Below, one piece after another: positions 26,053-58,344 of a DNA stretch of 64,000 nt. The DNA is taken from positions 176,696 through 240,695 of the forward strand of contig OZ242302.1 in NCBI GenBank assembly GCA_965208025.1, given 5' to 3'. The stretch's first letter is position 1. The number at the start of each line of letters is the position of its first letter. Under the pieces are notes generated by a model. It was not told the origin of the DNA, did not search any database, and saw only the letters and a program-made list of their open reading frames with translations. A program made the translations under genes and the position numbers. Source of the stretch: Rhodothermales bacterium. GTDB lineage: Bacteria > Bacteroidota > Rhodothermia > Rhodothermales > Bin80.

Positions 26053-26412
26053 CTCTCTGGATTTAACTTTTGGTTGATTACGTGTTGATAGAGGCAAGTC
26101 ATCCACAATGATTAGAATCTCAGTTCTGAAGTTTAGATATTATCCTCATCTACTATGGTAATTTTATTTCCAGAATTTTGCCGTTAATTTATGCTGTTTT
26201 AGGGTTTGATGATGATCATAAGGGGTATTTCAGACTCCATCAATATATTTCAGAACTCACTGAGACTTATTTAATTCAAAATATACGGGGCGCGGACCAC
26301 TTGCAAGATCATCCACATTCTACATGAATTCTGGTACAACCACACGATACGTGATTAAATTGTCCAAGGCATAGGCACTTATATTCATCATGAATTTTTC
26401 CAGATCTTTTTG

Positions 26413-29394
26413 ATGCCAGTTGGACGAACTACAGAGGAATCCTTCAACGGCGCACTTGGCCGCTCTTTGCGTCGCGCGCGTGCGATTTGGTCTGAAAGGC
26501 CGGAGTGTGTGAAGGTAGAGGAGACGAATCTTTTGCATGCCCATCCAGGTCTCAAGCCTGACCTGCTGATTCATGATGGTGTCGTCCCGCCCGTGATTCT
26601 TGAATGTTCATTTGATGCGCGGGATGCCGATCAAGATGCAATCCAGCGACTTGGGTTAGAGATTCGTCAAGGACGCTATCGGATCGGGACGACGGTGGCA
26701 CTACGGATTCCGTCAAGCTTTCGTGAGGTGCCGGGATTCAAGATTGAGGATGCATTATTGCAAGGGGCATCGCTTTCGTACGCGGTGCACCAATTGACAG
26801 AGCGTCAGGGGCAGACTTCGGTTGGAGAAGTATTTCGTCGACGCTGGCCCCAACAGGGCTTTATGGAGGGTACGGTCTTTGATCTTGCCGCCCTACTGCC
26901 CTCCATTGGAGTACCGCAGGAAACGTTGGAGGAGATTGGGGATCGGATTGCGGTTCTGGTCAAGGAAGCCTCCAGCGGCCTGGAACTCGCCTTATCCACC
27001 AAGGAGCAGCAGGAGGTCGCTCGCCATTTGCATCAGCGTTCGCCGCTCAAGGGATTACGTACCATGATGGTCCTGTGGCTGAACGCACTGCTCACGCAGC
27101 AACGTCTGGCGATGCAGGGGGCCAACGAAGTGTCGCACATCGATCTGTTGCGAGATTCCCTTCCTGATTTGCGTGTTCAGATTGAGTCATGGCGCGCCAT
27201 TAATCGTCGGAACTGGAATTCGGTCTTTGAACCAGCGATCCAGATGCTTCAATTGTCTGCCAAATTTAATCCTCTGGAGACCGCACGGATGCTCTTCAAA
27301 CTGATTGGTGCGGTTGGGCAAATTGAGACCGCGCAGTTAGGATTGCACATTAGCGTGGGGGCGGAGTTGTTTCCCAAACTGAGTGAGGACCGCAAAGAGG
27401 CGGCAGCGTTTTATACGCAACCTGCCACGGCAGAGCTTCTGTCAAGTCTGACGATTGATCCATCGCGTCTCACAGCCGATGAATGGCGGGATTCGGATCT
27501 ATTCCATACGCGCCGATTGAGTGATTTAGCCTGTGGAACGGGCACGCTTCTTCGGGCAGGCTATCTGCGAATCATCCAGCTTCATGAACAAGCGGGGGGG
27601 AGTCAGGAAAGCCTTCGTCGTCTTCATGCGTCGGCGATGGAAGGGGGCTTGATTGGCACGGACATCAGTCCCATAGCGGCCCATCTGACGACCTCATCAC
27701 TGGCAGCATTGGGGTATGGGGATCCCTATGGAGATACACAGATCGGGTGGGTTAATGTAGGTGGGGGAAAGGGACAGACGGGTGCGCTGGAATACTTTGC
27801 CACGCCGAAGGTGGTGGATTTATTCAATGTTGGGGGTGGCACCTCTCGTGGGAATGGTGATCAGGAAGAGAATTCTGTTGAGGTATTGGATGGATCCATT
27901 GACTGGATTCTGATGAATCCTCCTTATTCAAGAACACGAGGTGGACAGCGTGTATTTGATGTGGCAGGTCTTTCATCGTCGGAGCGAAGAGATTGTCAGC
28001 GCCGGTGGAAGATGCTGGTCAAGTCGGAGCCGGTGAATAATCAGGCGGGATTGGCGGCATCCTTTTTGGCTTTGGCACGTCGCAAGTGTAAGCCGGGCGG
28101 ACGGATCGGATTTGTTCTCCCCCTCTCGGCGGCATTTGCCGAATCCTGGGCAATCACGCGTCAGATGATAGAGCAAGAGTTTGAAGATGTGTTGGTGATC
28201 GGGATCGCGAGTGGGCAGGCGCTCGGGAAGCGTGCACTTTCTGCCGACACTGGGATGGAAGAGATGTTGTTTGTAGCCACAAAGCGAATGAACCACAATG
28301 GAGGGGAACCCAACAGGGAGGCGAGTTCACCTCCGATCCATTGCATCACTCTTCGAGAGCCTGTGCGACGTGTTGGCGAAGCAGGCGAAGTCGCTCGTGC
28401 GATTCAAAGTGTGATTCATCGAACCAAGGCATCAGGCAGCAAGAGTTCGCCTGTTCATGTTGGAGAGGATGAGATTGGACAGTTATGTGTGCAGCGGATC
28501 AGGAAGTCTGGTGATCCGTGGAGTTCACTGGGGGTATTGCACGCGGATCTGGCACTGACGGCCCATGCACTGTTGGAAGGGAGCCTACAATTTAATGGGG
28601 AGGAAGTATCCGTGGGTGTAGAGATGTGCATGATTCAAGATCTGTTTGATTTGGGACCAACTCATGATCTGATTGGCCATCTTCCAGGGAAAGATCGTAG
28701 AGGGGCATTTGAATTGAGCCCAGTGTATGACGAAGTGGATGCAATTGGGCAGGACCGTGCACTTTGGAGAGCGGATGCAGGTACACAGAGGCAGTTGATC
28801 ATTCCGCTCACACATAAGGGGATCACACCGGCAGGGGGCGGATCAGAGGAAAAGCGGAAGCAGATGCGACAGTTCCGCAGCACATTGTTCTACGCTCGCA
28901 ACATGCGTTGGACCTCGCAGGCATTGCTGGCCGCAACCACATCTCACCGTGGGATGGGAGGTCCCACCTGGACGGCTCTGGTTCACAATGATTCTCGTGT
29001 ATGTGTGGCTTTTGCCCTGTGGGCAAATTCTACGCTTGGCTTCCTGATTCACTGGACACAGGGACAGAGAACACATAGCGGACGCGCACGGACACAAATC
29101 AAGGCATTGGCCAAGATTCCCTGTCCACGGCTTGATCAAATCCCAGAGACTCGTTTGGAACGAGCGGTGAAGAGATTTGCTGAGTTAGCCAAGGAAGAGT
29201 TACTGCCAGCCTGCCAAGCACATGCAGACGAGGTACGAAAGGAGATTGATGATGCAGTCCTTGAAATGCTTGCACTTAACCAGAATGAAATCCCTAAAAT
29301 GATCAGTACACTACGGTGGCTCTGGTGCAATGAACCATCTGTACATGGACAAAATCAAAAAGCAAAAAAATTGTTGAAAGAGAGGGGCAGCTAA
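26413..29394 (+). CDS. Type IIG-like fused restriction-modification enzyme, copy 2 (mosaic)
   Basis: Collinear with copy 1 at offset 3342, with the same motifs. Segment 28944-29165 matches copy 3. Confidence 0.82.
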   Translation: MPVGRTTEESFNGALGRSLRRARAIWSERPECVKVEETNLLHAHPGLKPDLLIHDGVVPPVILECSFDARDADQDAIQRLGLEIRQGRYRIGTTVALRIPSSFREVPGFKIEDALLQGASLSYAVHQLTERQGQTSVGEVFRRRWPQQGFMEGTVFDLAALLPSIGVPQETLEEIGDRIAVLVKEASSGLELALSTKEQQEVARHLHQRSPLKGLRTMMVLWLNALLTQQRLAMQGANEVSHIDLLRDSLPDLRVQIESWRAINRRNWNSVFEPAIQMLQLSAKFNPLETARMLFKLIGAVGQIETAQLGLHISVGAELFPKLSEDRKEAAAFYTQPATAELLSSLTIDPSRLTADEWRDSDLFHTRRLSDLACGTGTLLRAGYLRIIQLHEQAGGSQESLRRLHASAMEGGLIGTDISPIAAHLTTSSLAALGYGDPYGDTQIGWVNVGGGKGQTGALEYFATPKVVDLFNVGGGTSRGNGDQEENSVEVLDGSIDWILMNPPYSRTRGGQRVFDVAGLSSSERRDCQRRWKMLVKSEPVNNQAGLAASFLALARRKCKPGGRIGFVLPLSAAFAESWAITRQMIEQEFEDVLVIGIASGQALGKRALSADTGMEEMLFVATKRMNHNGGEPNREASSPPIHCITLREPVRRVGEAGEVARAIQSVIHRTKASGSKSSPVHVGEDEIGQLCVQRIRKSGDPWSSLGVLHADLALTAHALLEGSLQFNGEEVSVGVEMCMIQDLFDLGPTHDLIGHLPGKDRRGAFELSPVYDEVDAIGQDRALWRADAGTQRQLIIPLTHKGITPAGGGSEEKRKQMRQFRSTLFYARNMRWTSQALLAATTSHRGMGGPTWTALVHNDSRVCVAFALWANSTLGFLIHWTQGQRTHSGRARTQIKALAKIPCPRLDQIPETRLERAVKRFAELAKEELLPACQAHADEVRKEIDDAVLEMLALNQNEIPKMISTLRWLWCNEPSVHGQNQKAKKLLKERGS

Positions 29395-30655: not shown

Positions 30656-30913
30656 TATGGTAATTTTATTTCCAGAATTTTGCCGTTAATTCATGCTGTT
30701 TTAGGGTTTGATGATGATCATAAGGGGTATTTCAGACTCTATCAATATATTTGAGAACTCACTGAGACTTATTTAATTCAAAATATACGGGGCGCGGACC
30801 ACTTGCAAGATCATCCCATTCTACATGAATTCTGGTACAACCACACGATACGTGATTAAATTGTCCAAGGCACAGACCCTTATATTCATTATGAATTTTT
30901 CCAGAACTTTTTG

Positions 30914-33910
30914 ATGCCAGTCGGACGAACTGCAGAGGAATCTTTCAACGGAGCACTTGGCCGCTCTTTGCGTCGTGCGCGTGCGATTTGGTCTGAAAGG
31001 CCGGAGTGTGTGAAGGTAGAGGAGACGAATCTTTTGCATGCCCATCCAGGTCTCAAGCCTGACCTGCTGATTCATGATGGTGTCGTCCCGCCCGTGATTC
31101 TTGAATGTTCATTTGATGCGCGGGATGCCGATCAAGATGCAATCCAGCGACTTGGGTTAGAGATTCGTCAAGGACGCTATCGGATCGGGACGACGGTGGC
31201 ACTACGGATTCCGTCAAGCTTTCGCGAGGTGCCGGGATTCAAGATTCAGGATGCATTATTGCAAGGGGCATCGCTTTCGTACGCGGTTCATCAATTGACA
31301 GAGCGTCAGGGGCAGACTTCGGTAGGAGAAGTGTTTCGTCGACGCTGGCCTCAACAAGGCTTTATGGAGGGTACGGTCTTTGATCTTGCCGCCCTACTGC
31401 CCTCCATTGGAGTACCGCAGGAAACGTTGGAGGAGATTGGGGATCGGATTGCGGTTCTGGTCAAGGAAGCCTCCAGCGGTCTGGAACTCGCCTTATCCAC
31501 CAAGGAGCAGCAGGAGGTCGCTCGCCATTTGCATCAGCGTTCGCCGCTCAAGGGATTGCGTACCATGATGGTCCTGTGGCTGAACGCACTGCTCACGCAA
31601 CAACGTCTGGCGATGCAGGGGGCCAACGAAGTGTCGCACATCGATCTGTTGCGAGATTCCCTTCCTGATTTGCGTGTTCAGATTGAGTCATGGCGCGCCA
31701 TTAATCGTCGGAACTGGAATTCGGTCTTTGAACCAGCGATCCAGATGCTTCAATTGTCTGCCAAATTTAATCCTCTGGAGACCGCACGGATGCTCTTCAA
31801 ACTGATTGGTGCGGTTGGGCAAATTGAGACCGCGCAGTTAGGATTGCACATTAGCGTGGGGGCGGAGTTGTTTCCCAAACTGAGTGAGGACCGCAAAGAG
31901 GCGGCAGCGTTTTATACGCAACCTGCCACGGCAGAGCTTCTGTCAAGTCTGACGATTGATCCATCGCGTCTCACAGCCGATGAATGGCGGGATTCGGATC
32001 TATTCCATACGCGCCGATTGAGTGATTTAGCCTGTGGAACGGGCACGCTTCTTCGGGCAGGCTATCTGCGAATCATCCAGCTTCATGAACATGCGGGGGG
32101 GAGTCAGGAAAGCCTTCGTCGTCTCCATGCGTCGGCGATGGAAGGGGGCTTGATTGGCACGGACATCAGTCCCATAGCGGCCCATCTGACGACCTCATCA
32201 CTGGCAGCATTGGGGTATGGGGATCCCTATGGAGATACACAGATCGGGTGGATTGATGTAGGTGGGGGAAAGGGACAGACGGGTGCGCTGGAATACTTTG
32301 CCACGCCGAAGGTGGTGGATTTATTCAATGTTGGGGGTGGTACTTCTCGCGGGAATGGTGATCAGGAAGAGAATTCTGTTGAGGTATTGGATGGATCCAT
32401 TGACTGGATTCTGATGAATCCTCCTTATTCAAGAACACGAGGTGGACAGCGTGTATTTGATGTGGCAGGTCTTTCATCGTCGGAGCGAAGAGATTGTCAG
32501 CGCCGGTGGAAGATGCTGGTCAAGTCGGAGCCGGTGAATAATCAGGCGGGATTGGCGGCATCCTTTTTGGCTTTGGCACGTCGCAAGTGTAAGCCGGGCG
32601 GACGGATCGGATTTGTTCTCCCCCTCTCGGCGGCATTTGCCGAATCCTGGGCAATCACGCGTCAGATGATAGAGCAAGAGTTTGAAGATGTGTTGGTGAT
32701 CGGGATCGCGAGTGGGCAGGCGCTCGGGAAGCGTGCACTTTCTGCCGACACTGGGATGGAAGAGATGTTGTTTGTAGCCACAAAGCGAATGAACCACAAT
32801 GGAGGGGAACCCAACAGGGAGGCGAGTTCACCTCCGATCTATTGCATCACTCTTCGAGAGCCTGTGCGACGTGTTGGCGAAGCAGGCGAAGTCGCTCGTG
32901 CGATTCAAAGTGTGATTCATCGAACCAAGGCATCAGGCAGCAAGAGTTCGCCTGTTCATGTTGGAGAGGATGAGATTGGACAGTTATGTGTGCAGCGGAT
33001 CAGGAAGTCTGGTGATCCGTGGAGTTCACTGGGGGTATTGCACGCGGATCTGGCACTGACGGCCCATGCACTGTTGGAAGGGAGCCTACAATTTAATGGG
33101 GAGGAAGTATCCCTTGGAGTAGAGATGTGCACGATTCAAGATCTATTTGAATTGGGACCAACCCATCACCTGATTGGACATCTCTCGGGGCAAGAGAATA
33201 TTGGGGCATTTGAGTTGAGTCCAGTATATGACGAAGTGGATGCAATTGGGCCGGACCGTGCACTCTGGAGAGCGGATGCGGGTACTCAAAGACAGTTGGT
33301 CATCCCGCTCACGCATAAGGGGATCACACCGGCAGGGGGCGGATCAGAGGAAAAGCGGGAGCAGATGCGACAGTTCCGCAGCACATTGTTCTACGCTCGC
33401 AACATGCGTTGGACCTCTCAGGCTTTGCTGGCCGCAACCACATCTCACCGTGGGATGGGAGGTCCCACCTGGACGGCTCTGGTTCACAATGATTCTCGTG
33501 TATGTGTGGCTTTTGCCCTGTGGGCAAATTCTACGCTTGGCTTCCTGATTCACTGGACACAGGGACAGAGAACACATAGCGGACGCGCACGGACACAAAT
33601 CAAGGCATTGGCCAAGATTCCCTGTCCACGGCTTGATCAAATCCCAGAGACTCGTTTGGAACGAGCGGTGAAGAGATTTGATGAGTTAGCCAAGGAGAAG
33701 TTACTGCCTGCCTGTCAGGCACATGCAGATGAGATACGAAAGGAAATTGATGATTCAGTTCTTGAAATGCTTACACTTAACCAGAATGAAGTCCCTAAAA
33801 TGATCAGCACACTACGGTGGCTCTGGTGCAATGAACCATCTGTGCACGGACAAAATCAAAAAGCCCTCTCCTTGATCACAGAGCGAGGAGCGCCGAGAAA
33901 TATGATTTAG
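30914..33910 (+). CDS. Type IIG-like fused restriction-modification enzyme, copy 3
   Basis: Collinear with copy 1 at offset 7843, with the same motifs. It diverges from about 33113 onward and has a different C-terminus. Confidence 0.82.
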   Translation: MPVGRTAEESFNGALGRSLRRARAIWSERPECVKVEETNLLHAHPGLKPDLLIHDGVVPPVILECSFDARDADQDAIQRLGLEIRQGRYRIGTTVALRIPSSFREVPGFKIQDALLQGASLSYAVHQLTERQGQTSVGEVFRRRWPQQGFMEGTVFDLAALLPSIGVPQETLEEIGDRIAVLVKEASSGLELALSTKEQQEVARHLHQRSPLKGLRTMMVLWLNALLTQQRLAMQGANEVSHIDLLRDSLPDLRVQIESWRAINRRNWNSVFEPAIQMLQLSAKFNPLETARMLFKLIGAVGQIETAQLGLHISVGAELFPKLSEDRKEAAAFYTQPATAELLSSLTIDPSRLTADEWRDSDLFHTRRLSDLACGTGTLLRAGYLRIIQLHEHAGGSQESLRRLHASAMEGGLIGTDISPIAAHLTTSSLAALGYGDPYGDTQIGWIDVGGGKGQTGALEYFATPKVVDLFNVGGGTSRGNGDQEENSVEVLDGSIDWILMNPPYSRTRGGQRVFDVAGLSSSERRDCQRRWKMLVKSEPVNNQAGLAASFLALARRKCKPGGRIGFVLPLSAAFAESWAITRQMIEQEFEDVLVIGIASGQALGKRALSADTGMEEMLFVATKRMNHNGGEPNREASSPPIYCITLREPVRRVGEAGEVARAIQSVIHRTKASGSKSSPVHVGEDEIGQLCVQRIRKSGDPWSSLGVLHADLALTAHALLEGSLQFNGEEVSLGVEMCTIQDLFELGPTHHLIGHLSGQENIGAFELSPVYDEVDAIGPDRALWRADAGTQRQLVIPLTHKGITPAGGGSEEKREQMRQFRSTLFYARNMRWTSQALLAATTSHRGMGGPTWTALVHNDSRVCVAFALWANSTLGFLIHWTQGQRTHSGRARTQIKALAKIPCPRLDQIPETRLERAVKRFDELAKEKLLPACQAHADEIRKEIDDSVLEMLTLNQNEVPKMISTLRWLWCNEPSVHGQNQKALSLITERGAPRNMI

Positions 33911-44745: not shown

Positions 44746-45927
44746 ATGGCTAATCTTGTCTATCGGAAAACGATTGAACGATTTCTTTACATACTTTCCC
44801 TCGCCGGTGTCGGCTTAACCCTTCATATAGCACTTTGGTATGGAGGAGAGAACAGCGGTAGTGGAGATCCATTCTGCGGAGTTGAATCGAACTGTGCTGG
44901 TGTCATTGCCAACGATCCTGCTCCGTTTGGAATTCCAAGTGTATGGTGGGGCGTTCTGTTTTACACCTTGATCGGAGTCGGGACTCTGCTGATCACTCGA
45001 AATACAGGTGGATGGGGAAAAAGGCTGATGACTGGCCGAGTCATCCTGGTAGGTTTAGCTTGGTTGTATTCCCTCTTCCTTACAGCCTTGCAGGTCATTG
45101 CCATTGATGGATGGTGTCAGCTATGCTTCTTTTCGTTCTCCATTGCGACACTCATTGCAGTATTTACGTTCTCGGGTCTATTTTTGAGATCTAGCCCCAA
45201 TGCTCCAGTGCAAGCGCCAGCCAATGAGAAGATATTTCATGGAGCGGTTGCACTGCTTCTACTTGTCTTTCTCGTTTGGGATTACACAAATGTTTCTGGA
45301 ACTGATGATTCAGTTGGGTTAGCTGTGGATAGTGAAGAGACCATTGATCCAGCGTTATGTACCTATGATCCTGCGACCCCTGCCTTTGAGAATGTAGATC
45401 AACTTGTCATGGACTATGATCCTATCAAGGGTGCGGTGGATGCGCCGATTCTGGTGATGGAGTTTCTGGATCCCAATTGTAATCATTGTAAGACGGTTCA
45501 TCCGCATATAAATGCACTTGCGGAGGCATATCCCGACTCGGTGCGGGTTGTATACAAACCACTGCCGATCGTTGGTGGCCCGACTCATTCACTTGATGAA
45601 ATTGCTGCTCTCTACTACGCGAATGAAGAGGGAGTATTTGAGGAAATGCTTGATTTAGTGTTTGAGAATCAATCGCCTGCCACTGGACTTTCCATTGATC
45701 GTCTTGCCGATTTTGCCGATGATCTCGGTTTGGATGAAGCAGATTTTCGCAGGGCCATTAGTGATCGTAGATATTCGTCTATGATCGTTCAGACGCAGCG
45801 AATTTTTGATGGAATGGGATTCACGGGAGTCCCCGTAATTATCATTGGTGGTCGTGAGATTAGCAGTTCTAGCCGTAACATTGGGTGTCTTCAGCATTTT
45901 GTTGAACAGGCCAAACTTCAATTATAG
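44746..45927 (+). CDS. VKOR (vitamin K epoxide reductase) - DsbA/thioredoxin fusion
   Basis: Loop cysteines FCGVESNC, TM CxxC (WCQLC), periplasmic DPNCNHC and cis-Pro GVP. Confidence 0.88.
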   Translation: MANLVYRKTIERFLYILSLAGVGLTLHIALWYGGENSGSGDPFCGVESNCAGVIANDPAPFGIPSVWWGVLFYTLIGVGTLLITRNTGGWGKRLMTGRVILVGLAWLYSLFLTALQVIAIDGWCQLCFFSFSIATLIAVFTFSGLFLRSSPNAPVQAPANEKIFHGAVALLLLVFLVWDYTNVSGTDDSVGLAVDSEETIDPALCTYDPATPAFENVDQLVMDYDPIKGAVDAPILVMEFLDPNCNHCKTVHPHINALAEAYPDSVRVVYKPLPIVGGPTHSLDEIAALYYANEEGVFEEMLDLVFENQSPATGLSIDRLADFADDLGLDEADFRRAISDRRYSSMIVQTQRIFDGMGFTGVPVIIIGGREISSSSRNIGCLQHFVEQAKLQL

Positions 45928-49019: not shown

Positions 49020-49033
49020 TGGTAGCGCTTCCA
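49020..49033. promoter_or_regulatory. Candidate LacI/GalR-family operator
   Basis: TGGTAGCGCTTCCA is a near-perfect palindrome with the central AGCGCT typical of LacI-family sites, about 230 bp upstream of the TBDR operon. Confidence 0.5.
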
Positions 49034-49193: not shown

Positions 49194-49221
49194 TTGCAAA
49201 TGTTCCGATAATAATTATATT
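49194..49221 (+). promoter_or_regulatory. Putative sigma70 promoter of TBDR operon
   Basis: TTGCAA-N16-TATATT, about 45 bp before the ATG at 49265. Confidence 0.4.
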
Positions 49222-49264: not shown

Positions 49265-52200
49265 ATGAACTATCGTTTCTCAATTTTCTTCTTGATGATG
49301 CTTTTTTGGTCGGGTGCTGTTGCGGTCGCACAGACTGGAAAAATTTCAGGCATGGTGGCAGATGCCAATAACGAGCCGCTGCCCGGAGTTAATGTGATCA
49401 TTGATGGAAGCGCTATCGGTGCTGTCACCAATATAGATGGCATATTTTCCATTTTGAATGTACGTCCAGGTATTCATACGCTTCGTGCTACATTTGTCGG
49501 ATTTACCCCTGTTACGGTGGAAGAAATCCGAGTGGCAATTGAACTCACTACCGAGGTGAATATTGTGATGCAGGAAGACACGGCCGAGTTAGACGAAATT
49601 GTCGTTGTTGCGGAGCAGCCAATCATCCAACGTGATATCGCAGCTTCCCAGAGAAACATTGATTCCGAAGAACTTCAAAATTTAAAGTACCAATCGGTCG
49701 CGCAGGTGCTTACATCTCAGGTTGCGTTTAGTGACATTTCCAGTGTTGAGGACAGACCGCAGATTCGAGGCTCTTTCTTTGATCAATCACTCTATATCGT
49801 TGACGGTGTGAATTACAACGATCCACTCACCAATACTCCTCACTATCAAACAAATTTGGATGCTGTTGAAGAGATCAAGATTCAAACAGGTGGATTTAGT
49901 GCAGAGTACGGAGATGTTCGGTCGGGGGTCATTAATGTTGTGACACGCGAAGGTGGAGATCGCATTACTGGAACGATCAATGCGCAGCTCAGTCCAGCGG
50001 CCTATAAGCATTTTGGTCCAGGCCCATTTGATTTCAATTCTCCAATTGTAGCGCCGTTCGTGGATCCAGGATTAGGAGCTTTTGAAGGAGGTAATTCATT
50101 CTTTGACGGATGGGATCAGGTCGCCGCCGATCTTCCAGAGAGCGAGGCACATGCTGGTGCTCCAATGGAATTATATGCTCGTTATCTTTGGAGACATCGC
50201 TCGCAAGATGCGATTGACGAGTTAAAACGATTGCAAGATCAGGGAATCGTTCAGTTTGCTGAGGGACTCAACCCAGATGATTTGGTTTTTCATCAGACGG
50301 GGGTAAATCCAGACTATCGCTTAAGTGCCACACTTGGTGGCCCTGTTCCATTTTACCGTCCGATGAAATTCTTCTTTAGCTTTGACAGGAGAGAGTCTGA
50401 GTACGCCTATCGTTTTCCAGAGTCAAGTTTTCTGTCAAATAATTTCCGTGGTAAGCTGACCACCAATTTCGGAGGTGGAAAGAAACTCAATTTACATGGG
50501 AATTATAGTGTTGAGGTTGGAGGTGATGGCGGGCAAGGGGCTGGAATTGGTGGATTCATTGCAAGCAATCCCTTCACTTCAACGGGGTCTACGAATAAAT
50601 ACTGGTATCCTCACTGTGCTGTACCTGCGGATCGTACCCGTCAGATCTATGGAGGACAATGGACACACGCTCTATCCGCAAATACTTTTTATGAACTCAA
50701 GTTGACGCACGATCGAGTTGATTACGCCATGGATCTTACCTTTCGTAACACAGCTCCCATTCCTGGATCGGGTGGGGTTACGAGTTCCTCAAAAACAAGT
50801 GGTTCAGGGATTGATGGAGGACGTATAGGGACGGAGCAGGAGGCAATGGATCGTGCGGCTTCAGGTCAGGAAGGCTGGGAAAATTGGCGTGAATGGGCGC
50901 TTCTTCGGATCGGACAGCACTGGTACGACGAGGCACCCAAAGGATACGGTCCTGTCAACTGGCGAGATGTGACAGGCGAGTATCGAATGGAGTCCTGTAA
51001 TCTGCGTCTAGATGCATCCGACTCTCGCGGCTGGGATGCTGTGGCCAATTTCACGAGTCAAGTGAATGAATCCAATCAGATTCGCATGGGAGTGCAGTTT
51101 CGTTCAGAAGATTTTGATACGTACTATGAAGCCATTGACCCATCGGTCAACTCTGGTAGTGTTTGGGATTCTCAGGCAGCTCACTACATCGGAGCGGCGT
51201 ATCTCCAAAATAAATTAGAATTTCAAGGATTTGTGGCTACGGTTGGTGCACGGTTAGACGTACTTAGTTCAGGTGATTATCCTGCTGTTCTGGATGGATG
51301 TGATCTTTTTGGGACAGGCGATACCTCTGAGTGCTCTATGGAGGGATCATCTGGCCCTTACTCCGATGGCCTTGCGGCTGGAAATACCACCGTAGAAGTT
51401 GAAGATGGCCGCCTGTTAGACAGCCGAGAAACCGTTGTCCATGAGTCGCTGGGACCTAGCCGAATCACTCAAGCTCGCGTATCTCCCCGCATTGGTCTTT
51501 CGCACCCGATTGGAAGCGTTGCCAAGGTATTTGTGAATTACGGACACTTTTACCAATGGCCCAATGCAATTCAAATGTACCGAACCCGGCTGGATACTCG
51601 CCGTGGTTTTCGCGTGATAGAGTTTGGTAATCCCTCATTAAAACCAGAGCGGACGATTCAGTATGAGGTAGGGTACGAACAGAACTTGTTTAATAGCATG
51701 AATTTGCGGATGACAGGCTATTACAAAAATATTAATGGAGAAATTAGCAATATTAACTTCTACCCACTGAGCTACGGAGGCGGGGCTTACAATATTCCAG
51801 TGAATCGGCGTTATGCTGATGTGCGTGGAATTGAAGCGTTTTTAGAATTACGACGCGGAATCGTGCCGTATCTCAGTGGTTGGTTTAGCTTTAATTATCT
51901 TGTGTCCAGTGGAGCAAATTATGGGTTTGACCGCTTTTTTGAGGATCCCATCCGCCAGCCTCGGCTGTCAAATACTCAGGTATCAAACCCTGATGTCCGC
52001 CCGATCATTAAAGGAAGTTTGAGCTTTCAATTACCTGAAAATTTCCGCGGTCCGCAACTTGGTGATGGATCTCTATTGGGTGGGTTGAATTTGTCGCTCA
52101 CTTACACTTGGCGAAGAGGGCGGCAGTTTACATGGAATCCAGCACAAGTTCCTCTGGTTGAGGATAATCTTCGTTGGAAGCCCTATCAAAGATGGGATAT

Positions 52201-52555
52201 GCGGTTGACAAAGTCTCTTTTCCGTACGGGCAGTTATGATACATCGTTCTATATTGATGTGACAAATCTGTTTAACGTCCGAAATATGTCGTCCTTCTCG
52301 GGCAGTGATCTTGACAACAATGTTGGATGGGCTTGGGATGGCCATAAATGGTGGAAAAGCGAGAGAAGAGATTACATGGAGTCGCTCGGATATTCCGCCG
52401 AAAATCAGGTACCAGCAGATCCAGATGGAAACTTCAATAATACGATTGGTCGGCCTGGCGATTGGGATAATGACCAGATAGACCTGCCTGCCTTTTCCCC
52501 CTGGACGTTCCTGGAGCGACGTGATATATTCTTCGGAATTCGTGTCAGTTACTAA
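49265..52555 (+). CDS. TonB-dependent receptor (large, CarboxypepD_reg N-domain)
   Basis: Signal peptide ending AVAQ, TGKISG..PLPGVNV, plug QIRG/IVDGV/TGGFSAEYG..SGVINVVTREG, SPRIG, GNPSLKPERT and C-terminal FGIRVSY. Confidence 0.92.
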   Translation: MNYRFSIFFLMMLFWSGAVAVAQTGKISGMVADANNEPLPGVNVIIDGSAIGAVTNIDGIFSILNVRPGIHTLRATFVGFTPVTVEEIRVAIELTTEVNIVMQEDTAELDEIVVVAEQPIIQRDIAASQRNIDSEELQNLKYQSVAQVLTSQVAFSDISSVEDRPQIRGSFFDQSLYIVDGVNYNDPLTNTPHYQTNLDAVEEIKIQTGGFSAEYGDVRSGVINVVTREGGDRITGTINAQLSPAAYKHFGPGPFDFNSPIVAPFVDPGLGAFEGGNSFFDGWDQVAADLPESEAHAGAPMELYARYLWRHRSQDAIDELKRLQDQGIVQFAEGLNPDDLVFHQTGVNPDYRLSATLGGPVPFYRPMKFFFSFDRRESEYAYRFPESSFLSNNFRGKLTTNFGGGKKLNLHGNYSVEVGGDGGQGAGIGGFIASNPFTSTGSTNKYWYPHCAVPADRTRQIYGGQWTHALSANTFYELKLTHDRVDYAMDLTFRNTAPIPGSGGVTSSSKTSGSGIDGGRIGTEQEAMDRAASGQEGWENWREWALLRIGQHWYDEAPKGYGPVNWRDVTGEYRMESCNLRLDASDSRGWDAVANFTSQVNESNQIRMGVQFRSEDFDTYYEAIDPSVNSGSVWDSQAAHYIGAAYLQNKLEFQGFVATVGARLDVLSSGDYPAVLDGCDLFGTGDTSECSMEGSSGPYSDGLAAGNTTVEVEDGRLLDSRETVVHESLGPSRITQARVSPRIGLSHPIGSVAKVFVNYGHFYQWPNAIQMYRTRLDTRRGFRVIEFGNPSLKPERTIQYEVGYEQNLFNSMNLRMTGYYKNINGEISNINFYPLSYGGGAYNIPVNRRYADVRGIEAFLELRRGIVPYLSGWFSFNYLVSSGANYGFDRFFEDPIRQPRLSNTQVSNPDVRPIIKGSLSFQLPENFRGPQLGDGSLLGGLNLSLTYTWRRGRQFTWNPAQVPLVEDNLRWKPYQRWDMRLTKSLFRTGSYDTSFYIDVTNLFNVRNMSSFSGSDLDNNVGWAWDGHKWWKSERRDYMESLGYSAENQVPADPDGNFNNTIGRPGDWDNDQIDLPAFSPWTFLERRDIFFGIRVSY

Positions 52556-52607
52556 ACTTAGATGAAATTTTCATGGTCAGTAGTCTGTTTGACTACGATC
52601 CTTTCTT

Positions 52608-54836
52608 ATGACCAATTATAACATAATGAGATATAGCAACCCAACCTATCCAATTCTTCTCATCTGTTTGTTGATGGTGGGTATTACGGAATCAGTCAGT
52701 GCTCAGGAAGCTCGTAGTTTGGTTGTAGGCCCCGTGCTCTATTCCACTAATGAGGCGATGACCGATGATGCTTTGAGTTGGCCCAGAGATCGACCCGTTA
52801 GCGGGGCTAGAAAGGCCATGCTTGACGTGAATGCTGTGATTATTGGTGTGGAGCGCACTTGGACGGATGCCAGTAACGTGACCCGTGATATTCAAGTTGC
52901 TCAGATCGGCCGTCGGAAGTTTTCCGATATTGAATTGGTTACTCCAGCCGTTTCTGGGGCATTCAGTCGAACATTCCGAACACCATACCCAGCAAAAATT
53001 TTGGATGGAAACGAGTGGACACCTCAATTAGCGAAGGATGATCCGGTTGATTCAAATCTACCCTCGGATATCGTCATACGCAGTCATTTGAATACATGGA
53101 CAGGTATCGATATAGAGCGATGGATCTATGGATTCACGAATGATGATCATGACGATTACATTATCATGGAGTACCGATTTACGAACGTTTCAGGGGAGGT
53201 TCGGAACAACGTTTATTTTGGTCTGCAGGCTCAGACTCATGCGAACACTTATTATCCTGCTGACCTTTGGGGTAATTACTACGGAGCCACATATGCCAGT
53301 TATGCTGGAGGAGATCTTTCTGCGGACTCATTGCGCTTATGGTATTCTTGGGACGCGGATCAGACCAGTAACACCTCCGTAGATACCCGAGGTAAACCAG
53401 GGGGGCTTTGGGGGAATTTTCAGGAACCACAATTTTTTGGTCATGTGGTACTCCACGCCGATACCTCACCGTCCGATGAAACTGACGATCCTTCCCAGCC
53501 GCGAAAGGCAGGTTGGTCACAGCGCGAGTTAGCCCCTGACCTAAATGTGGCTGGACATGAAGATATTTACGCCTACCTGAAAGATGGATGGGATTCGGCA
53601 AATCCAGGTGCTTATGGCGTGACCGTAGACGAAACAAGTGCTCTCACGCCAGAAGGGCCTTATCGGATACTTGATCCCAATCTTGGTCCAACAGGCGATC
53701 CGAGTGTGGACATCAATAACACCACTCAGTTTGATCCATTAACTGAGCAAGAGAAAACGGCTCTGTTTAGTTTCGGCCCCTATACTCTTAATCCAGGTGA
53801 AGATATTCGGATTGTCACAGCATATGTGGGTGGTAGCATTCCTTACCGCTGGGCAATTGATGCAGGCGCCGCGTACCAAAGCGGTAACCCTCAGCAATTA
53901 CCCTTAGTCCCTCTTCCATATGATCTGCCCAATTATGATGGTAAATATATTGATCCTCTGAATCCAGATGAACTGAATGCGATTCGCGCTTACGTAAACG
54001 GTCAGGTTGTTGCTCCCCGAGGCTCAACTCTTGATAAAACCACCAAGAATGCTGTACTCAATTTAAGCCGTCCCCTGATGTTTTTGAATGCCAGCAAAGC
54101 GGTTCGTACTTGGAAGGGGGGCAATGTGAAATATGGACAGGGATCATTTAATATTCCATTCGCTCCTGCATCTCCATCCATTACTGGATTTTCGGAGGGA
54201 GATCAGGTACGTCTGAACTGGGGGAATGAGGCAAATGAAGATATGCGTTCCTCGTCTGTGGTGAGTTATCGTATTTATCGTGAAGCCACTCGACCTGCCG
54301 CGCTTGCATCCCCCACAGACACTACGTTTATACTTCATGAAGAATTGCCCGCGGGGACCCGTGAGTATATTGATACACGAGTGACCAGAGGTGAAGACTA
54401 TTACTATTACATCGTAGCCGTCAATAGCGATGGAATAGAGGGGAGTCGATTCTTGAATCGAACTGGTGTAACGAGTGACAAATTTCTTGAAGCACTCACT
54501 CCAACCCGCACCCCCGACGATAATTGGCAGGAGAATGTGGTGGTGGTCCCCAATCCATTCCACTCCCGTGGCGCATTTAATTACGAAGAGGCGCGACGTC
54601 TGACGTTTCTCAATCTACCTGCATATGCCAATATTCACATCTACACTGTCACTGGAGATCGAGTTCAAACCATTGAACATCGCTCTGGCACTGGAGATGC
54701 GGATTGGGAACGACAGCAAACATTTAGCACGACTCAAATTGTGAGTGGGATCTATATTTATGTTGTGGAAGAGCTGGACGAATTTGGAAGTCCCACAGGC
54801 AACCAAGTCGTCGAAAAGTTCGTGGTCATTAAATAA
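52608..54836 (+). CDS. Secreted protein with FN3 domain and T9SS-type C-terminal sorting-like domain
   Basis: Signal peptide; FN3 (APASPS..VRLNW..YRIYR..YIDT.V..G..YYYYIVAVN); CTD-like tail VVPNPF..LTFLNLP..IHIYTVTG..SGIYIYVV..KFVVIK. Confidence 0.75.
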   Translation: MTNYNIMRYSNPTYPILLICLLMVGITESVSAQEARSLVVGPVLYSTNEAMTDDALSWPRDRPVSGARKAMLDVNAVIIGVERTWTDASNVTRDIQVAQIGRRKFSDIELVTPAVSGAFSRTFRTPYPAKILDGNEWTPQLAKDDPVDSNLPSDIVIRSHLNTWTGIDIERWIYGFTNDDHDDYIIMEYRFTNVSGEVRNNVYFGLQAQTHANTYYPADLWGNYYGATYASYAGGDLSADSLRLWYSWDADQTSNTSVDTRGKPGGLWGNFQEPQFFGHVVLHADTSPSDETDDPSQPRKAGWSQRELAPDLNVAGHEDIYAYLKDGWDSANPGAYGVTVDETSALTPEGPYRILDPNLGPTGDPSVDINNTTQFDPLTEQEKTALFSFGPYTLNPGEDIRIVTAYVGGSIPYRWAIDAGAAYQSGNPQQLPLVPLPYDLPNYDGKYIDPLNPDELNAIRAYVNGQVVAPRGSTLDKTTKNAVLNLSRPLMFLNASKAVRTWKGGNVKYGQGSFNIPFAPASPSITGFSEGDQVRLNWGNEANEDMRSSSVVSYRIYREATRPAALASPTDTTFILHEELPAGTREYIDTRVTRGEDYYYYIVAVNSDGIEGSRFLNRTGVTSDKFLEALTPTRTPDDNWQENVVVVPNPFHSRGAFNYEEARRLTFLNLPAYANIHIYTVTGDRVQTIEHRSGTGDADWERQQTFSTTQIVSGIYIYVVEELDEFGSPTGNQVVEKFVVIK

Positions 54837-54846
54837 ATAGAATACC

Positions 54847-55893
54847 ATGAAAAATATTAAGACTTCATTATTGTGTGCGGTTCTGCTTTGTCTACTGAAT
54901 GCCTCGCCTGTTTTCTCCCAGGCTGTGAAGTATGCACAATCTGGATTAGGCTTCCTTCAAATTGCCCCATCCGCTGATGTTGCGGCTCTTGGTGGTACAT
55001 ATGTCGCCACTACTGGAAAGGCCTCTTCAATTTATTCAAATCCTGCGAGTCTTGCCATGGTTGAGGGCGTTGACGTATCAGCAGGTTACGTCCAATGGAT
55101 TGCGGATATTGCCTTGTATAGCCTTGCAGCGGCCACGCACGTAAATAATGTGGGTGTGTTTGGTGTTAGTCTCATATCCATGGATTATGGAACTTTGAAA
55201 GGGACTCGTCCATGGCAGGCAGGAGATGATCCAGGCTTGCGGGATCAAGGGTTTATTGATTTAGGCAGCTTTACTGTAAACGACTTTGCATTGGGTCTCG
55301 CCTATAGCCGTGAAATTACCACACAATTCTTTGTTGGTGCAAATTTACGCTATGTCCGCCAAGACTTGAGTCCAGATATTAATGTTGCAATTATTGATGC
55401 AATCACTGGAGATATCATTGACAATAGTGAAAATGTAGTCTCAAACATTGTGTTTGATTTTGGAACGCTGTACTACCCTGGATTTCATGACTTACGTTTT
55501 GGGGCTACGTTACGAAATTTCTCAAATCAGAGTGACTATTACGATCAGCGGTTTGAACTCCCTCTGACCCTTGACTTTGGTATCGCTATGGATGTGCTCA
55601 AGTTGTTTAATTCGTCTGGTTCAGGCAACAGTCAGTTAACTTTTGCTGCTGATTGGGTTCATCCTCGAGATTACACTGAACGTCTTCATGTCGGTCTTGA
55701 ATTTGGCTTTATTAATACGTTCTTTCTTCGTGGAGGTTATAAGTTCAACTATGATGAGGAAAGTGTAACGGCTGGATTAGGGGTAAATCTAAGTACTGGT
55801 GGATATGGTCTCAGGGCGGATTATTCCTATTCGGCTTTTGGTGATTTCTTTGGCGCTGCCAACCGACTCTCTGTTTCGCTCTTGCTTAAGTAG
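54847..55893 (+). CDS. PorV/PorQ-family outer-membrane beta-barrel
   Basis: FLQIAPSA..AALGG, SIYSNPASL, alternating barrel strands, FLRGGY and DYSYS.FG...RLS C-terminus. Confidence 0.8.
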   Translation: MKNIKTSLLCAVLLCLLNASPVFSQAVKYAQSGLGFLQIAPSADVAALGGTYVATTGKASSIYSNPASLAMVEGVDVSAGYVQWIADIALYSLAAATHVNNVGVFGVSLISMDYGTLKGTRPWQAGDDPGLRDQGFIDLGSFTVNDFALGLAYSREITTQFFVGANLRYVRQDLSPDINVAIIDAITGDIIDNSENVVSNIVFDFGTLYYPGFHDLRFGATLRNFSNQSDYYDQRFELPLTLDFGIAMDVLKLFNSSGSGNSQLTFAADWVHPRDYTERLHVGLEFGFINTFFLRGGYKFNYDEESVTAGLGVNLSTGGYGLRADYSYSAFGDFFGAANRLSVSLLLK

Positions 55894-56421: not shown

Positions 56422-58344
56422 CCTGACTTCGACGGTTTGCAATTTTCTGAAAACAAAGAGAGCCTTATTTTTCAGTGGATACAGGTCTTTTGAAAAGAGT
56501 GTTCAGACAACTTTGAACACTACAAACACCGTCGGTTTTACCGCTTTTTGCGGTCTGAATACCAGACGTTAAGCAATCACTTGGGAGGCGGGTTACGGGT
56601 CTTTCTCCAAGGGTACGGTCTGGCGCTGAATCGTCAACCCCATCGCTTTGTAAAGCCGAACTTTTGTACTGCTCGCCGCCGACGGGATCGCAAAATGACG
56701 CTGGGTCGTCTTGTCTCGTACCACGGACACCTCTACTTCACGCAACTGAGCCAAAATCTGTCCCTCACTGATGGGCGCCTCCGCGCCATGTCGCGTGTTG
56801 TAGATTCGACGCAGAATGCGCAGCATCGCAAAGGTGGCAAAGCATATGGCAATGTGCGCGCGGACGCGGCGCTCAGTCCAGTGAAACACCGGACGAACCG
56901 CCATGGTATGCTTTAACACACGAAAGCCTTCCTCAATCTGCCATAATCCCCCGTATGGCCGCTGCATTCAGCTTCACCGCATTCCGGTTCACGTTCAAGT
57001 AACGACCCTTCTGACCCGATCCCTTGACCCCAGATGCCAAACGCTTCTGGGCTTTCGTTACCGCCTTCTCTCGTTCGTGTGCGTCCTTGGCCGCACGATT
57101 TGGACAATATCGCACGATGAGCCGCCTCCCCCCAATCCGCACTTCGCTTACCTTGCGCCCATCCGCGGTGGACTGCCACTTGAGGGTGCCCGTAACCTTA
57201 CGCAATTCCTCCGCCTTCATTGAGCGCAAACGGGCCGCAACCACATAGTCATGCCCCATACTTTGCAGTAAGGCGACATTGTCCGCACTCAGCATCCCAG
57301 AATCCGCCACAACCACCACACGGTCCAATGCAAAACGGGCCTTCAACGAGGTGATCGCTGGCTCCAGTGTCTTTACGTCCGCGGTGTTGCCTTCAAACAA
57401 CTCATAGCCGACGGGCAGTCCGTCATGGGTCTGCATCAGGGCCAAGACCACCTGCACACGAGTATGCTTCCCATCTTTACTGTATCCCTTCTTGCGGAGT
57501 CCGTCGGGCTTGTCCGAAGCAAACGCCAGCGTGGTCACATCAAAAAACAGTACATCCAGCTTGCTTCCGAGTAAGTCGGTCACCTCCCGGGCCACGATCG
57601 ACTGCAACTGCGCAATGCGCCGATCATCTACCGCATCCATCATGCGGTAAAACTTGTGGACCGGGACTTCCACGCCATCTTCCTTGGACAGTTGCCGCGC
57701 ATGCGCCAGTTTGCTGTCGCCAGGGGATCCTAGACGTAACAATACGGCTTGCCTGAATAGACGCGCAGCCATTGCATGCCGTTTGGAAAACAACTGATCG
57801 AACCCCATCCGCATATACAAGGCCCCAAACACCTCATGAAAGCCCACACAGATCCGCTTGACCTCCTCCAGCTTGCGGATATCTTCCAGCGGGATGGGCT
57901 GGTCGGACGGTTTCCTACGTCGGGCCTCCAATGCGGCATGCGCACTATGCTCCGACGGAAACAAGGACGGCTTGATCTCTTCTTCAATCCGCAATCGTTC
58001 CTGTTCCGCAATGTGCAGGAGGGCCTCCAATGCCGGGCCTTCGGGGGCCGTGCCCATATAGCGCACGATCCTCTGCCGCACTTTACCATCCTTTGTGCGG
58101 TCATTGCGCACGATCTGGACAGCAATGTTTTGGGTCGTCTTTCGTTTGAGTTTGCGGACGAACATGATACAGGTAAGATACGGCACAGGATTCAAATATC
58201 CAAATCAAAAAACAGACTGAACACTACATATTGAGAACTCGAAAAACAGGGCTAAAATGGCCCCAAATACCCCAAAAAAGCCCAAAAATCACTCAAAAAT
58301 GGCTATTTTGCCCTCCAAGTCAACACCTACCTGTCGAAGTCAGG
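56422..58344 (-). mobile_element. IS1634-family insertion sequence (1923 bp)
   Basis: Perfect 12-bp IRs CCTGACTTCGAC/GTCGAAGTCAGG, 113-bp flanking DR, higher GC than flanks and an IS1634-type transposase. Confidence 0.93.
56593..58165 (-). pseudogene. IS1634 transposase, frameshifted by apparent internal deletion near 56955
   Basis: ORF1 has FFDVTT, GYSKDGK, FEGNTAD and VADSG. The catalytic LWQIEEGFR..K..RPVFHW..RVRAH lies in another frame. Confidence 0.88.

Follow-up and report, generated by a model that had tools for sequence, protein, structure and literature searches.

The described systems closest to the locus reported here include the following. SusC/SusD (RagA/RagB) pairs and utilisomes resemble it in having a large TonB-dependent receptor with an N-terminal extension followed directly by the gene of a surface partner, in their many paralogues and in their placement in carbohydrate loci. 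Type IX secretion system (T9SS) cargo proteins of type B, together with their PorP/SprF barrels (SprB/SprF, Fjoh_3952/3951) resemble it in the barrel gene directly 3' of the cargo gene, the uncleaved cargo staying anchored on the barrel encoded directly downstream (PMC12618676, PMC12635249). In the PorZ/PorQ, PorU/PorV attachment complex, PorZ retains its C-terminal domain (CTD) on PorQ, a PorV-family barrel, and cognate barrels have been proposed to shield CTDs from cleavage (PMC10202324). The present locus lies in a 64,000-nucleotide stretch of DNA (the window, to which coordinates refer) of a Rhodothermales bacterium (assembly GCA_965208025.1, contig OZ242302.1, positions 176,696 to 240,695) and comprises the genes of a TonB-dependent receptor, a middle protein (the partner) and a PorV-family barrel, together termed a cassette. 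We put at roughly 0.6 the probability that this trio is one outer-membrane uptake unit, in which the barrel holds the partner at the cell surface, where it captures glycans for the receptor.

The three genes are co-directional on the + strand in the order receptor, partner, barrel, with intergenic gaps of 52 and 10 bp in the open reading frame (ORF) list. No SusD gene was found at the trio locus, the single PF07980 match of the genome sitting elsewhere, and an earlier note on this DNA, which had described three tight co-directional genes without SusD, was thus right about both the layout and the makeup (receptor, unannotated protein and PorV-family barrel). Chance adjacency was ruled out, as five paralogous loci of the genome, and the majority of homologous loci, have the genes in the same order. 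The genome holds five cassettes besides its housekeeping PorV, PorQ, PorU and SprA, and pairwise scores give identical relationships for all three genes, with the window cassette (A) grouping with B, C with D, and E standing alone. Partners of about 1,130 residues matched the 700-residue class with probabilities of 99.9 for the CTD, 98 for the FN3 domain and a weak 90 for the N-domain.

The named close relatives are Rhodothermales genomes, and hosts by record include Rhodothermales, Balneolales, Ignavibacteriales, Calditrichota, KSB1 and Marinimicrobia/Fidelibacterota. Among scorable rows of three overlapping sets, in which kin rows are not independent, the receptor gene was directly 5' of the partner gene in 69 of 74 (GTDB), 46 of 52 (metagenome) and 93 of 100 (a phylum sample of 100 matches chosen among the about 150 listed, with 308 further matches outside the list). 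In the same order, the barrel gene was directly 3' in 70 of 85, 50 of 79 and 78 of 100 rows, at another place within the locus in 10, 16 and 14 more, and not seen in 5, 13 and 8. Receptor and partner are more tightly linked than partner and barrel, which is what one would expect of a transporter with its lid. In the subfamily to which the window cassette belongs both linkages were complete (receptor upstream in 56/56 and barrel downstream in 68/68 scorable rows). Trees built from 134 complete triplets after deduplication at 95% had 91, 76 and 83 of 131 splits in common; strong conflicts numbered 5-8, and patristic distances correlated at a rho of 0.91-0.95. Such concordance indicates joint inheritance, not contact. 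The conservation and shared history of the triplet, which the earlier note had proposed to survey, are supported. Covariation (MI/APC on 134 paired triplets, Meff about 80) was set aside as uninformative, its top pairs being subfamily-diagnostic columns.

The receptor has CarboxypepD_reg, Plug and barrel domains according to Pfam, and its model (pLDDT 89.7) shows an N-terminal extension, a plug, 22 barrel strands and large extracellular loops. With its plug, 22-strand barrel and aromatic terminal residue it is a TonB-dependent transporter, as was every Foldseek match of the model. On the SusC/RagA model TIGR04056 it scored 126 bits against a cut-off of 368, which places it outside the SusC family; it belongs to a non-SusC subfamily specific to these cassettes. 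A complex prediction that paired the partner N-domain with two receptor pieces (205-580 and 948-1074 of the mature chain), half of the barrel being omitted, gave a score of 0.01 and a mark of 0.32, which speaks neither for nor against contact. Five receptor loops of 35-106 residues were seen in the model, two of which are conserved across subfamilies. Such loops would suit a tethered partner whose task is not capture but to help build, support or shield them, or to act as their adhesin, and a FadL-like barrel with a surface protein is known in Bacteroidota BAM assembly (BamG/BamH, PMC12611786). Yet the partner N-domains and loops L3/L4 diverge between subfamilies in step with neighbouring catabolic genes, as specificity parts would, and the barrel scored just 21 bits on the BamG model (cut-off 250). 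A BamG/BamH identity was rejected, and a structural role is considered improbable. It was also observed that Cys451 and Cys578, located where extracellular loops 3 and 4 end, covary and likely form a disulfide.

The partner has a cleavable signal peptide as read by eye, its mature chain starting at Gln33. Glutamine occupies the mature start in 98 of 101 aligned partner rows, and only 5 of 100 homologues have a word resembling a lipobox; judged from its sequence, the partner is not a lipoprotein, so that another anchor would be needed. None of the SusD-family traits (PF07980 or PF14322, lipobox, helical fold) was found, the protein having no Pfam match and a mainly-beta model. Pfam and NCBIfam gave no family at E<=0.1, a PDB sequence search with the partner profile gave nothing under E 0.01, and ESM Atlas clusters for one homologue were unnamed or named for FN3 only. 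Folded as a whole chain from 94 sequences (pLDDT 92.6, pTM 0.90), the partner is modelled as a beta-supersandwich, an FN3 domain and a PorZ-like tail. The FN3 domain and the CTD-like tail ending in KFVVIK, which the earlier note had described behind a large unrecognised N-domain, show up in the fold only.

Among the families listed by the fold search, mature residues 1-486 matched 5nz7 best (Z 18.8, rmsd 4.0, 270 aligned), followed by 8rf9 (Z 18.5), 1lf6 (Z 17.5) and the mutarotase-like 3mwx (Z 13.2), with 5-12% identity to fold neighbours. The best matches (Z 16-19) are accessory N-domains of phosphorylases (GH94) and glucoamylases. N-terminal domains of GH94, GH15 and GH65 enzymes, and galactose mutarotase-like proteins, share the beta-supersandwich with the partner, which differs in that its model has no catalytic (alpha/alpha)6 barrel, with only seven short helices in the N-domain, and in its fusion to FN3 and a CTD. 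In place of a binding lid, the partner may be an enzyme (lyase-, epimerase- or mutarotase-like) that the barrel tethers to the surface and that would trim or convert glycan beside the receptor. Weaker fold neighbours at Z 11.6-13.2 (galactose mutarotase-like proteins, GH174 fucanase and lyases) agree with this, as do the nearly invariant His251, the Glu156, Glu348 and several Arg, Lys and Trp residues kept in the close subfamily, and stand-alone homologues with type A tails that resemble ordinary secreted cargo. However, the accessory N-domains outrank these neighbours, no N-domain Glu reaches 85% conservation across both subfamilies, where the invariant positions are Trp, Gly and Pro, and the identical architecture occurs in xylan, GH16 and other loci with hydrolases encoded as separate genes. 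An enzymatic role is considered unlikely, if marginally less so than the structural one.

The C-terminus of the modelled partner fits the seven-strand beta-sandwich fold of type A T9SS cargo, and in the fold search it matched the CTD of PorZ, which is itself retained (5m11; Z 12.6, rmsd 2.2, 91 aligned, 23% identity). Neither TIGR04183 nor PF18962 matched the tail, which is absent from the 56 ORF matches of the type A cargo model in the genome, and no NCBIfam or Pfam match at E<=0.1 to type B CTD or PorP/SprF models was found for partner or barrel. A profile built from 149 cassette tails of other genomes exceeded 25 bits on exactly 5 of the 6950 ORFs of this genome, namely the five partners (63-131 bits), three of which come from cassette types outside the training set. 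On this profile evidence the cassette tail is a distinct class of T9SS-type CTD. In the 100-match phylum sample, seven homologues have neither receptor nor barrel, and each of them ends in a canonical type A tail; these tails scored 89-104 bits on a type A profile from this genome (a profile that took in three mis-picked ORFs); the one that was checked passes PF18962. By eye, cassette tails directly follow the FN3 region and lack the Thr/Ser-rich linker that precedes the type A tails of the stand-alone homologues. These homologues (L273, L290, L296, L298, L303 and L305, near recA and purH-like genes, and L278) are candidates for a released form and a handle on N-domain function, and their tail swap suggests a route to what decides retention or release.

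The barrel scored 187 bits on NF033709 (PorV/PorQ family, cut-off 90) and matched the PorV structure 6h3i_F at E 6.9e-18; it was also under the equivalog cut-offs for PorV (66/250 bits), PorQ (97/220) and PorV2 (44/325). Ten PorV-family matches were found in the genome: one that passes PorV and sits behind PorU, one that passes PorQ, a PorV2-like barrel, one pair, and five that close cassettes. In a quick tree of 70 barrels from five genomes, those of cassettes cluster according to the type of cassette and separately from PorV, PorQ and PorV2, which does not establish a single origin of cassette barrels. A hand count in four complete same-order genomes placed 31 of 60 barrels in strict triplets and 6 more probably so (matches of at least 150 bits, four weaker ones being excluded). 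The locus-specific PorV homolog proposed in the earlier note stands as a barrel distinct from housekeeping PorV/PorQ, but not as one barrel for every partner, the barrel of some receptor-partner pairs in the sister subfamily being distant, shared or not in the fetched stretch. A housekeeping PorU/PorV or PorZ/PorQ module was rejected, as those genes sit elsewhere in the genome. Another arrangement was observed at G000:C1:1340692-1344195 (L207), where a propeller-type protein with an FlgD-like tail is followed by two tandem PorV-family barrels, conserved in four other genomes.

As for the export machinery, the earlier note had named sprA and porKLMN/gld as core T9SS genes. SprA and PorU were over cut-off in the genome, and the PorV and PorQ models were passed by genes other than the cassette barrel; homologues of the motor genes were not found. 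GldM, GldL and GldN were not found in this 98.9% complete genome, and GldK was matched weakly with none over cut-off, in a genome profile search that had no positive-control genome for GldK, GldL and GldN. Among 121 sampled genomes, SprA was present in 96 and the same GldM model was over cut-off in 29, leaving 67 that were SprA-positive and GldM-negative. Full-length partner matches at E<=1e-40, read by hand among the matches listed, occurred in 33 of these 67, in none of the 29 GldM-positive and in none of the 25 SprA-negative genomes, a pattern confounded by taxonomy and limited to the 700-residue class. Inside SprA the CTD is bound by PorV loops, and in Flavobacterium the motor ejects barrel-cargo complexes (PMC10994853).

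The failure to find the motor, the presence of the PorU sortase and the occurrence of some partners without an adjacent barrel would be in keeping with a barrel that is an export shuttle only, or unused for export, the partner being cleaved and released as a hemophore-like scavenger or remaining periplasmic. One-to-one duplication of the barrel with each cassette fits stoichiometric retention, whereas recycled shuttling needs one PorV (PMC12618676); the cassette tails have no Thr/Ser-rich linker; and 55 other ORF matches of the type A model show a genome built for SprA export. This is regarded as the least probable of the three alternatives. Tethering of the partner by the barrel, which the enzymatic and structural roles share with the capture unit preferred here, is very probable.

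The capture unit builds on gene order, conservation, modelled folds, tail class, barrel identity and the presence of SprA, PorU, PorV and PorQ, all established directly. In it, the partner would be exported through SprA, directed by its variant CTD, and by analogy with cognate-barrel pairs would be kept by the uncleaved CTD on the cassette's own PorV-family barrel. Its modelled beta-supersandwich would then be offered to the neighbouring receptor, which it would contact as a glycan-capture partner. The substrate is probably carbohydrate, likely small oligosaccharides or glycosides, passing in the close subfamily to oxidative 3-keto-type cleavage enzymes.

Evidence on the substrate comes from neighbouring genes. 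At least one gene of a sugar-catabolic set (Gfo/Idh/MocA oxidoreductase, DUF6807, TIM-barrel isomerase, 3-keto-disaccharide hydrolase, YiaK, sulfatase and GH51) was found in 27 of 45 close-subfamily loci compared with 8 of 50 sister-subfamily loci, counting loci of at least 10 kb. The close-subfamily set is similar to the clusters for oxidative cleavage of glycosides in 10.1101/2024.03.25.586180. Sister-subfamily loci instead carry GHL10 (11/50) and, after the barrel, an IPT/TIG protein (33/50), a possible accessory surface protein. Cassette D of the genome lies between a SusC/SusD pair and GH16, and in G003, a same-order genome, a cassette lies inside a LacI-GH10-SusC/SusD-GH67-GH3 locus whose gene order matches that of Rhodothermus marinus in Table 1 of PMC6987092, except that two listed genes are missing from G003. 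In that table, Rmar_1070-1072 of the xylan locus are given as a TonB-dependent receptor, a hypothetical protein with a por-type CTD and a hypothetical protein. From this match in gene order, in which the G003 cassette occupies the three positions, the R. marinus locus appears to hold a cassette, of the 1,140-residue class, although the paper makes no PorV-family call on the third gene and does not present the three as a unit. Cassettes thus occur inside SusC/SusD loci, so the cassette works alongside SusC/SusD and does not take its place. The earlier suggestion of an alternative to SusCD needs correction in that the cassette is a parallel system and not a replacement, with SusC/SusD-type pairs in the genome and adjoining cassettes. 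Replacement of SusD in a SusD-less organism was rejected.

Several points weigh against a capture unit. With none of GldM, GldL, GldN or an over-cut-off GldK found, the export step is left without a known energy source. The supersandwich fold alone does not show sugar binding, and none of the tested sugar-catabolic neighbours occurs in the window or in its six closest relatives. Shared trees are also expected from plain operon co-duplication. The stand-alone homologues amount to about two independent events, six of the seven being one orthologous locus, and they show that the N-domain can function with no receptor next to it. Two lineages (L099/L100/L159 and L119/L177/L178/L191) carry a cassette-type tail with no receptor or barrel adjacent.

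Compared with known systems, the triplet belongs neither to SusC/SusD nor to type B systems. Its receptor fails the SusC model, its partner, with a mainly-beta fold, a T9SS-type tail and no lipid anchor, contrasts with the alpha-helical SusD lipoprotein, and a third gene is added whose barrel is the likely anchor, both systems being present in one genome. Unlike type B systems, it has a CTD of the type A/PorZ beta-sandwich fold, a barrel of the PorV/PorQ family, a TonB-dependent receptor within the unit, and hosts in which GldKLMN went undetected. The CTD fold is like that of PorZ, but the genome has separate PorU, PorV and PorQ, and cassette barrels branch apart and number 5 to 11 per genome. 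The separate principles (receptor with surface partner; anchoring on a cognate barrel) are known, and the combination is not. No published description of the triplet or of the tail class was found in open-access full text, covered mainly as listings and abstracts. A preprint (10.64898/2026.09.25.754504) was set aside as irrelevant, 'minimal' there referring to medium; information relevant to the missing motor may lie in the distribution table of PMC12611786 and in supplements to surveys of the T9SS. It is tentatively suggested, at somewhat less than even odds, that the cassette represents a second, undescribed nutrient-capture architecture in Rhodothermia, Ignavibacteria, Calditrichota, KSB1 and Marinimicrobia. 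In it, a TonB receptor, a lid exported by the T9SS and a private barrel would form a 1:1:1 outer-membrane complex, with a retained secretion signal of a new class and SprA export without GldKLMN, and it would make up about half of the PorV-family genes in these genomes. If so, it would explain SusD-independent surface partners of TonB importers in abundant marine, sediment and host-associated Bacteroidia relatives, as well as the 10-20 PorV-family genes per genome in those relatives, and would widen anchoring by cognate barrels to include PorV-family barrels and tails of the type A fold. Motor-less T9SS export would become testable in cultured Rhodothermus, and the cassette offers a new marker for glycan-uptake loci missed by SusC/SusD-based searches.

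Variants of the cassette were also observed. In four genomes (L321, L334, L348 and L359) the order is cassette-tailed protein, a 540-560-aa gene, receptor and barrel, these barrels forming their own branch. Sister-subfamily cassettes L116, L241, L246, L260, L096 and L101 contain an inserted gene for a probable lipoprotein of 270-320 aa, possibly an accessory surface protein.

Features of the trio and its upstream region (window coordinates)
Feature	Coordinates	Strand	Remarks
Near-palindrome TGGTAGCGCTTCCA	49020..49033	not assigned	231 bp 5' of receptor ATG
TonB-dependent receptor	49265..52555	+	1096 aa from ATG 49265; ORF opens at 49220
Partner (middle protein)	52608..54836	+	742 aa; C-terminal end KFVVIK
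Partner N-domain, beta-supersandwich with short helical elaborations	52704..54161	+	model, DSSP, fold search
Partner FN3 domain	54162..54503	+	seen in fold only
Partner cassette-class T9SS-type CTD (VVPNP...SGIY...KFVVIK)	54519..54833	+	fold match to PorZ CTD; own profile
PorV/PorQ-family outer-membrane barrel, cassette paralogue	54847..55893	+	348 aa; NF033709

The near-palindrome upstream of the receptor gene resembles LacI-family operators. It is rare in the genome, being one of 3 exact sites (with 4 loose ones) in 3.77 Mb, and a comparable palindrome (at least 10 of 14) was found upstream in just 2 of 64 homologue regions, indicating weak conservation. Scans for promoter-like (18, with 14.1 expected) and terminator-like (4, with 7.5 expected) sites gave numbers that do not exceed chance.

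The trio is flanked in the window by a transketolase gene upstream and a transposase gene downstream, which give no hint of substrate. The latter (56593-58195, -) encodes the DDE transposase of a multi-copy insertion element, is about 80 bases short of some ten other copies and is split into two ORFs. A VKOR-DsbA fusion gene (44746-45927, +) adjoins trp genes and the transketolase gene. Further upstream, three consecutive genes of 993-999 aa (23071-26052, 26410-29394 and 30911-33910, +) are 96-99% identical and have no Pfam match; they gave weak PADLOC methyltransferase/type IIG matches, and the genome has three more distant copies.

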